The notes under the pieces were generated by a model. It worked only from the letters and a program-made list of their open reading frames with translations, was not told the DNA's origin and did not search any database. A program made the translations under genes and the position numbers. Shown here in pieces: positions 1,657 to 62,840 of a stretch of 64,000 nucleotides of DNA (position 1 is the first letter of the stretch; each line of letters opens with the position of its first letter). The DNA is from a virus. The stretch spans positions 41,885-105,884 of IMG/VR virus record IMGVR_UViG_3300036939_000021, one strand, 5' to 3'.

Positions 1657-1708
1657 ATTATTAGAATGCATATACTAAGACAAAAAACCTCACATGGAAT
1701 AATTCAAA

Positions 1709-1966
1709 ATGACAACGACACAACAGACAGAACAAGATCAAGCAGAACATTACAAACGGTTATTTAACAAGTTTGCTGAAGGTGTCATAATGCTTTACAA
1801 ACAAGCACTTGTTCTAAAAACACCTGAAGCATATCGATTCTGGAACTTACGAGAAGAAAACCTCTACAAGCAAATTACAGAGAATTTGAATGAGACAGAC
1901 AAAAAGGAATTGCTCCGAATTCTGGTAATTGCTAATGAACGAGCGGTCAAAGTAATTCGTAAGTAA
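1709..1966 (+). CDS. hypothetical early protein
   Basis: ORF preceded by intergenic repeat and GGAATAAT motif. Confidence 0.7.
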   Translation: MTTTQQTEQDQAEHYKRLFNKFAEGVIMLYKQALVLKTPEAYRFWNLREENLYKQITENLNETDKKELLRILVIANERAVKVIRK

Positions 1967-2025
1967 TTTAATAATAAAAATTAGGGAGCATCTACTATTA
2001 AAAGTGAACACCCAATGGAATAATC

Positions 2026-2211
2026 ATAAAATTTGCAAAATTAGCTCTAGGTTTAACTCTTACGTTTTCTATCATTGTTGGTAATATTTATATTGTTGTA
2101 AAACCTTTGATAGCTTCTGAGACTCAAAGTTAGTGTAAAAAAGAAAAATCTAGTCCTTGTCCTGGTATGGGTAGGAGAGAGTACAATAGAATGATGTTTT
2201 CTTTTTCTTAG
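2026..2211 (+). pseudogene. degenerate secreted small peptide gene (signal peptide + PatX-like GxGRR C-terminus)
   Basis: ATA at the expected start, then KFAKLALGLTLTFSIIVGNIYIVVKPLIASETQS*CKKEKSSPCPGMGRREYNRMMFSFS*; in-frame TAG at 2131-2133. Confidence 0.5.
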
Positions 2212-2220
2212 CTACCACAG

Positions 2221-2250
2221 TCTGACTTTTTATCAGGTCAGACTTTTTTT
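2221..2250 (+). terminator. intrinsic terminator
   Basis: TCTGAC..GTCAGA stem + T7. Confidence 0.75.
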
Positions 2251-2471
2251 GTTTTAAATATTTTAATATTTTACTAATTTAGACTTTTCTAGAAGCCTCA
2301 ATAATATTGGATAAGGGAATAGGTCATTTTCTTTATTTTTAAGGCTCTAGAGCCATTCTAGAGGGCACCTAGAAGATTAGAAAAGTCTGCTAGCTTTCGA
2401 GATTTTTCGAAATTTATATATTTTCTAATAAAACAAAACAAAAAAAAATGGGGGATAGCTCCCCCAAGTCT

Positions 2472-2825
2472 TTATTCTTTTGTTTCCATCCAGTCTGCTA
2501 GTTTGGCTTTTCCTCCTTTTTTAATTATTCTCGTGTATTCTTTGTATTTTTCTTTGTCAGCTTTGCAAATTTCGGTCAAGTCTTTCAGAGTCATTTTAGA
2601 GAAGTTTGTCGGTTTTTCTGGAGGACTTTCTATAGGAATAATTTCTTGTTTTGGTTCTGGTTTTTTGATGATTTCTTTTGGCTTTTCTTCTGGTGTGTAG
2701 GGCTTGACTGGTGGACAGTAAGTAGCCATCCAGGTTATGTGAGAGTGGTAGAAAGCATGAGCGATGATTCCAGAGAATCCTATGATTGCAATAGACTCGA
2801 TTGCTGAGGTGAGAAGTGCTTGCAT
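2472..2825 (-). CDS. membrane-anchored protein with C-terminal HeH/Rho-N-like domain
   Basis: N-terminal hydrophobic segment, Pro/Lys/Glu linker, NFSKMTLKDLTEICK...KAKL motif. Confidence 0.6.
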   Translation of the reverse strand: MQALLTSAIESIAIIGFSGIIAHAFYHSHITWMATYCPPVKPYTPEEKPKEIIKKPEPKQEIIPIESPPEKPTNFSKMTLKDLTEICKADKEKYKEYTRIIKKGGKAKLADWMETKE

Positions 2826-2906
2826 TGTCTATTTCCTTAGATTTTCTTAGCTAGGCGATTTAGAGAGGTTTTAGAGCTTTTTGAGGCGTCGCTCTTTTTC
2901 TTCCCT

Positions 2907-2943
2907 ACTCTTCTATTTTATTAATAAAAATCTAAGATGTCAA
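2907..2943 (-). promoter_or_regulatory. phage early promoter (repeat family)
   Basis: minus strand TTGACATCTTAGATTTTTATTAA-TAAAAT-AGAAGAGT. Confidence 0.85.
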
Positions 2944-3028
2944 TAAATATAATATAAAGTTTTTATGAATAATTTTTTTTAAACTAATAGATTCACGATA
3001 AGATATTAAAAATAGATTTGATGAATAA

Positions 3029-3775
3029 ATGGTTGAATTATTAAAAGATCCATATTTTCGAGTACAACTAGATAAAGATGCAAGTTCACCTAATCCGGAA
3101 GCTGCGATATGGAATGCACAACATATTTGTGTAGCTGAGAAAGATTCTTATCATGATCAGCTACCTTTAGAACCTGGAAAAGCAATAATAAAACATCAAT
3201 TAGAAGGTGGAAAGGGTCACTATTCAGTAGCTGCTTTTGCTTTTGCAAAAATAGATTTTTATGGTTTCTCGCATGATGCTATTATGCAGATGAGAACTCA
3301 TCACACTAGTGGTAGTGATGTAAGATTTCTAGTACAAAGTTCTCGTTATACTTCTCAGAGATTTATAGATGTAGCTGAAGGAAAACTAAAACCAGAGGAA
3401 GTATTTTATTGGCGTCCTTTAGGAAAATATACAAGTCGTAATGGTTGGTATGAAAATAGTGATTTAGTACAGAATATTTTTTATGAGCAATGTAGAGAAA
3501 ATTGTAAAGTCTATGCTGATTTAGTTTTAGAGTACAATCAACCTTATGAACAGGCAAGAAACGTACTTTCACAAGGAATACGACAAGATTTCACAATAGC
3601 AGCAACGTTAAAAGGATTTTGGCATTTACTCGATCAAAGAACAAAAAAAGATTCTCAACTAGAAATTCAAACTTTAGCAGAAATGTTACAGCAAGAATTA
3701 GAAAAATGGTGTCCTACACTTTCTTATTGGTACAGAGAGAATCATATTAAAAAATCTAAGAAATTATTACCTTAA
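3029..3775 (+). CDS. thyX: FAD-dependent thymidylate synthase
   Basis: GHYS, QMRTH...VQSSRY, EQARNVL, R..KDSQLEIQ ThyX motifs. Confidence 0.9.
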   Translation: MVELLKDPYFRVQLDKDASSPNPEAAIWNAQHICVAEKDSYHDQLPLEPGKAIIKHQLEGGKGHYSVAAFAFAKIDFYGFSHDAIMQMRTHHTSGSDVRFLVQSSRYTSQRFIDVAEGKLKPEEVFYWRPLGKYTSRNGWYENSDLVQNIFYEQCRENCKVYADLVLEYNQPYEQARNVLSQGIRQDFTIAATLKGFWHLLDQRTKKDSQLEIQTLAEMLQQELEKWCPTLSYWYRENHIKKSKKLLP

Positions 3776-3781
3776 AACAAG

Positions 3782-61679: not shown

Positions 61680-61742
61680 TCATGGGAATAATCTGCTATA
61701 TACTTGAAGCTTATTCTCCTAACTGACAATTAGATTACAACT

Positions 61743-61767
61743 ACCTCTCCTCACCGAGAGGTTTTTT
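61743..61767 (+). terminator. intrinsic terminator
   Basis: ACCTCTC..GAGAGGT + T run; similar copy at about 62474-62503. Confidence 0.75.
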
Positions 61768-61783
61768 ATTATAAAAATTCTAA

Positions 61784-61939
61784 TCTAGTGAGTAGGAATC
61801 GAACCTACTCCAGAAAATAGTTAGGTTGGAGTATCTAAACTATCAGCTCCCTTCAAGGTCTGCTTAAGGGCGACTCCACAGCCTATCTCAAGCTTCTCTA
61901 TCATCTGAACGCTGTCTGTAGCGCCCTACCGCTCACTAG
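61784..61939 (-). ncRNA. tRNA-like structured RNA (156 nt)
   Basis: 7-bp acceptor stem CTAGTGA/TCACTAG+A, canonical T arm GTAGG-TTCGATT-CCTAC, short D-like hairpin, about 110-nt paired insert instead of an anticodon arm. Confidence 0.7.
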
Positions 61940-61989
61940 TCGTATATAGAAGGATAACACCCACTGGAATAATACCAAAGTATCCAATC

Positions 61990-62018
61990 TTGACATCTAG
62001 TAAAATTTGGCATATATA
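61990..62018 (+). promoter_or_regulatory. phage early promoter (repeat family)
   Basis: TTGACATCTAGTAAAATTTGGCA-TATATA. Confidence 0.65.
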
Positions 62019-62046
62019 AAAATATATTCGCAAGGTTTACTAGGTC

Positions 62047-62232
62047 ATGCCAAATTACAAGTCAGTAGAACAGTATCAACAAGCTAAAGCTAAAAATTTA
62101 AGAAGACAAGAACTTGAAAATAAAATAAAAGATTTAACAAACCGTCATGCTCTACTATGTCAATATTATGGTGATAGTGGAAAAGTTCGACAAGAATTAG
62201 AAAACGCACTACAGGAACTAGAAAATTTATGA
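62047..62232 (+). CDS. hypothetical coiled-coil protein
   Basis: ORF after promoter. Confidence 0.6.
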   Translation: MPNYKSVEQYQQAKAKNLRRQELENKIKDLTNRHALLCQYYGDSGKVRQELENALQELENL

Positions 62233-62444
62233 CAAAACAAATGTGCTGGCTATCGGCTAATTCGGAGTCTCCAAAGCAACTCTACCTCAGACATTCTCTA
62301 CAAGACCCTTGGAAGCTTTATAAGAAGTGTTCCGAATATGTACCCGACTATCTAGTAGAAAATGGCTCTCATGGTTACGCTACTCAACAAGTGCTTATGA
62401 CAAAGGGTTGGAAACTAGTATCTTCAGAGGGTCAGAGCGTATAA
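62229..62444 (+). CDS. conserved small protein (cyanobacterial-type family)
   Basis: WL...LYLR....PW..Y...PDY....GS.GYAT.Q.L...GW.LV; paralogue at 22827. Confidence 0.7.
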   Translation: MTKQMCWLSANSESPKQLYLRHSLQDPWKLYKKCSEYVPDYLVENGSHGYATQQVLMTKGWKLVSSEGQSV

Positions 62445-62532
62445 AATAAAAAATCTCTTGATAAGGATTAACAACCTCTCTTCACGCCAGAGAGGTTTTT
62501 TTTGGTAACAATTATAATAATGCTATATAATA

Positions 62533-62829
62533 GTGTCATATATCTTACTCAAACCCATGCCATCAGCCGATAATCTGGATACTAAAGTTTTAGAGTCTCT
62601 TGCACAATCTCCAAAATCTAGGAAAGATCTATTAGAGTCTGGGATTGCGTGTGAATCCTCTTTAGATAAGTCCCTGAAGCGTCTTAGAGAACGCAACCGT
62701 ATAAAGTTCGAGGTTATCGATACTCGTACTCACAGACGTTCTGGGATGAATAATTTCATCTGTGAGTCTAATCCTAAGATACGGATATATTCTCTAGTAC
62801 AGCAGGAAAGAGAAGTTCACATGGAATAA
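62533..62829 (+). CDS. winged-helix DNA-binding protein
   Basis: KVLESL..PKSRKDL......SL..SLKRL.E...I...Y.L. Confidence 0.65.
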   Translation: MSYILLKPMPSADNLDTKVLESLAQSPKSRKDLLESGIACESSLDKSLKRLRERNRIKFEVIDTRTHRRSGMNNFICESNPKIRIYSLVQQEREVHME

Positions 62830-62840
62830 TAAATAAATGC

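Follow-up and report, generated by a model that had tools for sequence, protein, structure and literature searches.

The window analysed here is a DNA stretch of 64,000 nucleotides, bases 41885-105884 of the 105,884-nt IMG/VR record IMGVR_UViG_3300036939_000021, which is the genome of a phage with 32.6% GC. Its subject is a short word, CACY-GGAATHAT in full and CACYGGAATHAT in its 12-base form, that is iterated along both strands. The 'terminal repeat' of the record is merely ~127 nt long and corresponds to the assembly overlap of a circular or permuted map. The tail genes are of the siphovirus type and include those for a 2099-aa tape measure, a J-like tip protein and a tail spike. An HNH gene adjoins that of the large terminase, and the replication set is composed of a family-A DNA polymerase, three helicases and a primase-helicase. 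A sigma factor, two ParB-like proteins and two TnpB proteins are also encoded. The octamer core of the word, GGAATHAT, forms the following array in the window.

1344..62830, both strands: GGAATHAT array, 48 copies on the plus strand and 31 on the minus strand; pyrimidine (Y) at position -1 in 70/79
Plus strand, octamer starts, part 1: 1696, 2017, 2635, 5359, 5811, 6471, 7636, 12097, 13339, 13520, 14542, 16093, 16130, 16775, 17918, 23321, 23788, 25239, 26283, 26943, 28113, 30169, 31109, 33815
Plus strand, octamer starts, part 2: 35147, 36386, 38055, 38502, 39430, 41632, 44063, 45460, 46275, 48380, 49973, 50579, 50730, 51789, 52317, 54276, 55492, 56233, 56399, 57906, 59920, 61685, 61966, 62823
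Minus strand, octamer starts: 1344, 2764, 6555, 6621, 8656, 13342, 15262, 16709, 23051, 26032, 26542, 28796, 30181, 31121, 31500, 34182, 35312, 35953, 39343, 41275, 42625, 44263, 45472, 48127, 49520, 50970, 53818, 54286, 56634, 58423, 59605

Dinucleotide shuffles of the window predict 4.49±2.24 copies of GGAATAAT, with a maximum of 12, against 47 found, and 63 copies of GGAATMAT are present where 6.74 are expected. The over-representation described in the initial annotation is real and every coordinate given there marks a copy, counted from the first base of the CAC-NY prefix, 4-7 nt upstream of the octamer. Its estimate of about 30 copies against about 5 expected was right on the excess but too low in the count. 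The Markov-corrected k-mer comparison proposed with it places GGAATAAT as the most enriched 8-mer (z=20.9, order-3 model). The whole genome contains 77 GGAATAAT, 38 GGAATCAT, 22 GGAATTAT and 1 GGAATGAT, that is A77/C38/T22/G1 at position 6 of the octamer, and every other single-mismatch neighbour is at background; GGAATMAT alone accounts for 115 copies. Since many T variants share the flank of the other copies, the family is defined as YGGAATHAT. It has 125 members in the genome, 66 on the plus and 59 on the minus strand.

The GGAATMAT copies comprise 45 intergenic, 34 sense and 36 antisense occurrences. All permitted frames are used and, in the frame where TAA would be read as a stop, solely the C variant GGAATCAT occurs. 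No orientation bias relative to gene direction was found, nor any bias towards one genome half or a genome position. The 70 copies within open reading frames (ORFs) compare with 16.2±3.5 (maximum 25) after synonymous-codon shuffling and with 9.0±3.2 after codon permutation. The spelling of peptides is biased as well: IIP is written as the motif in 12/13 cases where codon usage predicts 6.0, x(D/Y/N)S in 25/80 where it predicts 2.7, and motif-compatible peptides in general use it two- to nine-fold above prediction. Shuffling and spelling together rule out a codon artefact, the explanation that the initial annotation had named as the one that could undo its claim; its view of the word as a DNA-level signal spanning genes, gaps and hairpin arms is borne out. 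These results show selection on the word at the DNA level, independent of coding. Copies lie ≤60 nt from a stop codon in 37% of cases, in either orientation, versus 16% of random positions, so the proximity to gene boundaries suggested earlier applies to stop codons but not to other boundaries. REP, MITE or PATE elements were considered and rejected because 70/115 copies are in ORFs, in all frames, and only 8-12 nt are conserved.

The selected sequence extends 5' of the octamer. Position -1 is a pyrimidine in 107/115 copies (93%), C prevails at -4 and -2 and A at -3, in agreement with the C-rich 5' flank reported in the initial annotation. G is nearly excluded from -7 to -1 and an A-rich tract covers -18 to -9, a typical copy reading AAAGAA(A)CACY-GGAATHAT. 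The first upstream G falls at -1 to -6 in 16 copies where 82 are expected, and it peaks at -8 (25 versus 5.9 expected) and -9 (17 versus 4.9 expected). This context is found even in single copies within genes. No position downstream of the word is conserved.

Copies on each strand are spaced more evenly than chance, with a coefficient of variation (CV) of 0.72 on the plus strand (P=0.002) and 0.71 on the minus strand (P=0.003). Control hexamers of equal abundance have a mean CV of 1.05, and 1/258 of them is as even as the word. Once the strands are merged the spacing is not even (CV 0.93). Evenness survives a null model stratified into coding and intergenic DNA (P≤0.0005) and another restricted to one site in each intergenic gap (P≤0.0075). 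Successive copies tend to switch strand, giving 91 runs against 63.3 expected (z=5), and they do so among single copies alone (P=0.006, label permutation). Inclusion of the C and T variants and of the hairpin copies raises the evenness, and these are therefore counted as functional sites. The per-strand evenness and the strand alternation imply a machinery that acts on the strands one by one and requires sites at intervals of 1-2 kb; that the strands are read separately holds even if the priming hypothesis developed below is wrong. The mean per-strand gap is 1.6-1.8 kb, a spacing that matches the size of Okazaki fragments. The largest gaps on both strands coincide with DNA of foreign-looking composition, among them the following segment.

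17926..23320, both strands: largest motif-free stretch, GC 0.40-0.46, with Ig-domain and tail-spike genes

This segment (17926-23320) looks like a recently acquired, foreign host-range module. The gene of TnpB1, with 42.5% GC, is also devoid of any copy of the word.

Ten exact word pairs and two imperfect ones build long palindromes, whose loops measure 2 or 4 nt and whose arms reach 38 nt. The word occupies the upper end of the stem and A- and T-tracts flank the hairpin; the palindromes are positioned just after stop codons. Four of these structures, and a motif pair located inside the gene of the primase-helicase, are listed here.

30139..30218: palindrome, arms ~38 nt, loop 4, centre GGAATTAT/ATTATTCC, between convergent genes, -52.7 kcal/mol; bidirectional-terminator-like
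31096..31141: palindrome, arms 21 nt, loop 4, centre GGAATAAT/ATTATTCC, flanked by A- and T-tracts
31479..31516 (genome 73363-73400): imperfect palindrome caccGGAATAAg-taat-ATTATTCCggtg, followed by a T-tract
45440..45499: palindrome, arms 28 nt, loop 4, centre GGAATCAT/ATTATTCC, between two minus-strand genes
54276..54293: motif pair GGAATAAT-tc-ATTATTCC within the primase gene, encoding G-I-I-H-Y-S

In the six closest homologues of the primase, H-Y-S of the peptide G-I-I-H-Y-S is invariant and G-I-I is the majority consensus. The palindromes look like bidirectional intrinsic terminators, a role they would fill in addition to carrying the word. The corresponding features (stable hairpin, A- and T-tracts, location at gene ends) come together at ~11 palindromic loci only. 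Intergenic terminator-like hairpins contain the word in 16 of 76 cases, the remainder being ordinary GC-stem terminators, and a terminator role leaves 105 single copies unexplained. Two other terminator palindromes, at window positions 27769-27804 and 50028-50069, are built on near-cognate cores in which A replaces the first G, aGAATTAT...ATAATTCt and aGAATCAT...ATGATTCt. Two motif hairpins bracket TnpB1, yet their identification as IS200/IS605 ends was discarded: homology to the cyanobacterial copies stops ~20 nt past the tnpB stop, which leaves ~130 nt between the end of homology and the motif hairpin. The ORF upstream of TnpB1 has no Pfam match, hence no Y1-transposase domain was detected in it.

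The candidate reader of the word is the phage primase-helicase.

53694..56630, plus strand: primase-helicase, 978 aa, with an N-terminal domain of AEP fold, a Cys-less domain of DnaG zinc-binding-domain fold, D5_N and an SF3 helicase

The gene matches PHROG DNA-primase families. The carboxyl-terminal half of its product is an SF3 helicase of the P4/D5 type, with hits to TIGR01613 (P4-family primase) and to the primase-helicase of SaPI5 (7ola, E=1e-13). Residues ~40-280, modelled from a 26-sequence alignment with a pLDDT of 81.8, have structural neighbours that are nearly all AEP primase-polymerases: the PrimPol of cyanophage S-2L (6zp9, E=1.7e-4), LigD-Pol, human PrimPol, RepB' and CAPP. The invariant D172-x-D174 is consistent with the AEP fold. 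For residues 300-440 (pLDDT 70-90) the best matches are DnaG zinc-binding domains (2au3, Z 6.8; 1d0q, Z 5.9), followed by T4 gp61 (Z 5.3) and Twinkle (4.7). Taken together, the two N-terminal domains have the appearance of an AEP family not described before, in which the DnaG-like zinc-binding domain is zinc-less. Pfam has no family for the N-terminal or middle domains, even across the 26 homologues, and tblastn of the N-terminal half against cultured phages gave no match. Homologues of the primase are few: five were found among 5.8 billion proteins, all in Logan assemblies, and an exhaustive profile search added a few dozen more remote ones. For one homologue (P0182) nothing was found in the viral and metagenome contigs scanned. 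By the AEP, DnaG zinc-binding-domain and SF3/P4 matches, the phage has a primase of its own that includes a module of the template-recognition type, and the word is a single-strand signal recurring on each template strand at about Okazaki spacing (CV 0.71-0.72, z=5).

The AEP primase-helicase of NrS-1 recognizes an 8-nt template site, 5'-TTTGGTTA-3' or GTGR, and begins its primer on the base immediately 5' of that site (PMC8718748). In the case of the T7 primase, the composition of the flank alters binding and primer length (PMC6136900). The word shares the layout of the NrS-1 and T7 sites, in its case as an invariant 3' block, a pyrimidine at the predicted start and a 7-nt G-free flank, which leads to its reading as a primase site. 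We tentatively favour the hypothesis, with a confidence somewhat short of even, that the phage's own primase-helicase would recognize the word on its template and initiate there. The recognition domain of the primase would bind the invariant 3' element GGAATHAT on the unwound single-stranded template. The primer would start opposite the pyrimidine at -1, hence with a purine nucleotide, and would extend 5'-wards on the template across CAC and the G-free tract, its first ~7 nt needing no C; the first template G would be met at -8/-9. At the sequence level the flank, with Y at -1 in 107/115 copies and the G-free tract from -7 to -1, fits the predicted start. Selection would maintain a site approximately every 1.6 kb per strand because either strand can be the lagging-strand template. 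Sites would be placed where they are cheapest, in synonymous positions, in tolerant peptides, just past stop codons and in terminator stems, one terminator palindrome supplying a site to both strands. It is possible, although we would not call it probable, that an undescribed primase family combining AEP, a Cys-less DnaG-like domain and SF3 reads a 12-nt word and that the genome carries an evenly spaced priming map for each strand over its whole length. We regard with similar reserve the proposal that such a map could be achieved through synonymous and tolerated changes, shared with terminator stems and endowed with a 7-nt G-free primer template.

Comparison with characterized primases has two sides. 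The NrS-1 prim-pol and ORF904 of pRN1 (which recognizes GTG) likewise pair an SF3 helicase with an AEP catalytic domain and keep recognition in a domain apart; priming by NrS-1 starts 5' of the element recognized on the template, at a position whose counterpart is a pyrimidine in 93% of copies here. Their sites differ in that GGAATHAT is unrelated to them and that the word with its flank takes at least 12 nt. Their recognition domain is a helix bundle, whereas here the candidate has the look of a Cys-less DnaG-type zinc-binding domain. The sites of T7 gp4, 5'-(G/T)(G/T)GTC-3', resemble the word by an invariant 3' element that is partly uncopied, by a 5' flank whose composition is limited by the content of the primer and by a zinc-binding-domain fold as reader, a candidate one in the present case. 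They are 3-5 nt long and abundant by chance, unlike an 8+4-nt word that needs selection.

Several points weigh against primase recognition. A 12-nt site would be unusually long for a primase, and copies in the long palindromes would be base-paired in single-stranded DNA. The predicted single-strand accessibility of single copies is 0.56 against 0.54 for random positions, a difference without meaning. The match to the zinc-binding domains is moderate, with Z 5.3-6.8 below the caution line of 8 of the tool, and the cysteine zinc ligands are missing from residues 300-440 (consensus read by eye). Equal use of both strands throughout needs forks running in either direction across every region, which the hypothesis assumes. 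In the literature searched, we found no publication describing genome-wide, evenly spaced arrays of primase sites. If the hypothesis is correct, the starts of Okazaki fragments would be fixed by sequence and could be read or predicted from the phage genome; primase specificity would be a selective force acting on codon choice, peptide content and terminator design. A rare primase architecture would acquire a testable recognition code and possibly become a sequence-specific priming enzyme, and a general route would be available to infer primase specificity from phage genomes.

Several observations bear on the host and on the distribution of the word. Relatives of the large terminase TerL (~60% identity) include contigs binned with Tolypothrix and Dolichospermum. 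Those in IMG/VR have 41-43% GC and carry the HIP1 octamer GCGATCGC at 0.3-1.8 per kb; one of these records is classed as a provirus. HIP1 has zero copies in the phage studied here. TnpB1 (IS605 OrfB, genome 7936-9160, outside the window) has a GC content of 42.5% versus 32.6% for the phage. Its protein is 85-98% identical, and its DNA up to 86%, to TnpBs of biocrust and filamentous cyanobacteria, Kastovskya, Coleofasciculus, Microcoleus, Crinalium and others; its origin seems to be a recent acquisition from the host, and it serves as a host clue. The TerL relatives, the presence of HIP1 in them and the similarity of TnpB1 point to a cyanobacterial host. Since the best DNA match of TnpB1 among 401 sampled Cyanobacteriales reaches only 86% identity, the host is not among them. 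The second TnpB (genome 34156-35487) has the GC content of the phage itself. The phage is present in one DNA sequencing run, a biocrust metagenome from which the record probably derives; the run contains one identical contig and no strain variants. No RNA run with the phage is listed among the sequencing runs searched.

The word was not found in the TerL relatives, which carry HIP1 instead, and the other enriched words in these relatives are tandem coding repeats. Five relative records, all incomplete (55-85%), have no match to the phage primase. The 12-mer CACYGGAATMAT is present in at most ~12 copies per genome in 401 sampled Cyanobacteriota, versus 31 in the phage. The density of the octamer GGAATAAT in ten cyanobacterial genomes, including those with the closest TnpB DNA, is 0.04-0.06 per kb against 0.73 in the phage and is ~2x that of a reversed control. 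No comparable enrichment occurs in ~410 sampled cyanobacterial genomes, and a word imposed by the host is rejected for the genomes sampled. A scan of 185,579 genomes for the palindrome returned, among the matches listed, single hits scattered over many taxa, and the same scan of IMG/VR gave 85 stretches with chance single hits. One IMG/VR phage (G001) has 19 copies and no related primase.

Three further replication genes lie in a minus-strand module.

45508-47127, minus strand: RecD-like helicase, replication module 45508..51786
47901-50000, minus strand: family-A DNA polymerase, replication module 45508..51786
50344-51786, minus strand: DEAD/ResIII helicase, replication module 45508..51786

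The initial annotation had attributed the word to a phage protein. A reader belonging to phage-specific machinery agrees with the absence of the word from TerL relatives and from sampled host-type genomes, but the analogies then drawn, to stoperators and to DNA-organising sites, fit less well. The stoperators of cluster A mycobacteriophages are likewise asymmetric, of ~13 bp, and present in tens of copies in genes and gaps; they are co-oriented with transcription, whereas the word is 34 sense and 36 antisense. A double-stranded site for a phage protein (ParB/Noc-like, winged-helix, ribbon-helix-helix or Bro-N) that coats, organises, tethers or silences the genome appears unlikely. A specificity of 12 bp would be typical for a DNA-binding protein, ten pairs are exactly palindromic, and the G at -8/-9 is about one helical turn away from GG at +1/+2. 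One of the two ParB-like genes has a ParB/Noc helix-turn-helix region (TIGR00180, E=1e-11; nucleoid_noc, E=2e-8), and the core ATTATTCC loosely resembles the TTCC-containing half-sites of parS and NBS. These ParB and Noc sites are palindromes of 14-16 bp with a fixed half-site spacing, but most copies of the word are single and non-palindromic and, when paired, have loops of 2 or 4 nt in an arrangement that is everted relative to parS. None of the candidate proteins could be connected with the word. Such a site, the DNA-organising one included, predicts an even merged set, but it is only the per-strand sets that are even, with strands that alternate. We consider quite improbable a -10-type element for the phage sigma factor or host SigA that would yield short transcripts, sigma-dependent pauses or primers made by RNA polymerase. 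The signal is strand-specific, the phage sigma factor has regions 2 and 4, and TGGAATAAT departs from the extended -10 TGnTATAAT at -12 only, the variable position 6 then being the least conserved -9; the late-promoter-like GTGGAATATTGTAAATA has GGAAT in common with the word. Sigma-70 extended -10 promoters are co-directional with genes and upstream of them, but genic copies of the word have no orientation bias (34 sense, 36 antisense), intergenic single copies are 17 co-directional and 10 not (manual tally), and clustering is just downstream of stops rather than upstream of starts. Moreover, no -35 element is present, the true promoters form a separate class, cTTGACATCT-N17-TAnAAT, and the G-free flank is left without explanation.

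Other known words come close to the spacing and density observed here. Recognition by a helicase-nuclease (host RecBCD/AddAB or a phage enzyme) that the word would switch off in a Chi-like manner, protecting or recombining DNA from ends arising anywhere, has a small probability in our estimation. Chi is also a strand-specific octamer read by a translocating enzyme, and the word is even per strand, present in both orientations throughout and independent of transcription; the phage has a RecD-like helicase of its own. Enrichment of Chi in phages is known (PMC3784561). The specificity of Chi is set by the host and accompanied by enrichment in the host genome, but the genomes sampled have none, as judged from 0.04-0.06 GGAATAAT per kb in host-type cyanobacteria (~2x the reversed control, 0.73 in the phage) and from ≤~12 CACYGGAATMAT per genome in the 401 Cyanobacteriota. 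Known Chi sites assign no role to a pyrimidine at -1, a G-free tract or a G at -8/-9. Very improbable, finally, is a functionless by-product of a HIP1-like drive, a host-imposed word, an uptake-like drive, decayed terminator halves or a tiny mobile element. The USS of Haemophilus and DUS of Neisseria, uptake sequences found at ~1 per kb, share with the word their density, both orientations, the use of all reading frames, enrichment at terminators as inverted pairs, extended AT-rich flanks and even spacing. In addition, the extended word resembles the left arm of the bidirectional terminators of the phage, and HIP1, as an octamer iterated in the TerL relatives, has similar densities (0.3-1.8 per kb). 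USS and DUS belong to competent bacteria and not to a phage; no host genome with the word was found among those sampled and the evenness here is per strand. HIP1 is a palindrome found in the host as well, whereas the word is asymmetric and confined to the phage, which has no HIP1 copy. The ~410 cyanobacterial genomes without enrichment and the scattered single hits listed from the 185,579 genomes also disfavour a by-product, the 70 in-gene copies rule out REP- or MITE-type elements, and the per-strand evenness argues for selection on coverage. An origin in VSP-like biased repair was rejected because transition neighbours of the word are not depleted.

Apart from the word, the second most enriched sequence is cTTGACATCT, the -35 of a repeated sigma-70-type promoter cassette, TTGACATCT-N17-TAnAAT. 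A GGAG ribosome-binding site comes after the cassette and, in many instances, a T-tract terminator before it; over ~60 nt, many copies are near-identical. About 20 more copies are found in the first 42 kb of the genome.

1048, 31167, 31563, 60626, 61990 and 62841, plus strand: cTTGACATCT cassette
2937, 30527, 43043, 44434, 47180, 51835 and 53130, minus strand: cTTGACATCT cassette

A different element, GTGGAATATTGTAAATA, sits 30-45 nt upstream of structural genes, including that of the tape measure.

7569-7585, minus strand: GTGGAATATTGTAAATA (TGTATTTA in one copy of the element)
11325-11341, plus strand: same element
36400-36416, plus strand: same element
Genome 29733, minus strand: same element

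GTGGAATATTGTAAATA may serve as a late promoter read with the phage sigma factor, whose gene is at genome 32629-33324 on the minus strand. The relationship between the word and the late motif GTGGAATATT(GTAAATA), put forward in the initial annotation, comes down to a shared GGAAT, and the late motif has G at -2, which the word excludes. This late motif has only ~4-5 occurrences, upstream of structural genes. The minus-strand cluster at genome 29729-33324, outside the window, encodes the sigma factor together with a ParB-N-domain protein, two unknown proteins and one whose PAPS-reductase-like match is faint, and it recalls modules of the IbrA/IbrB type or of DNA modification.

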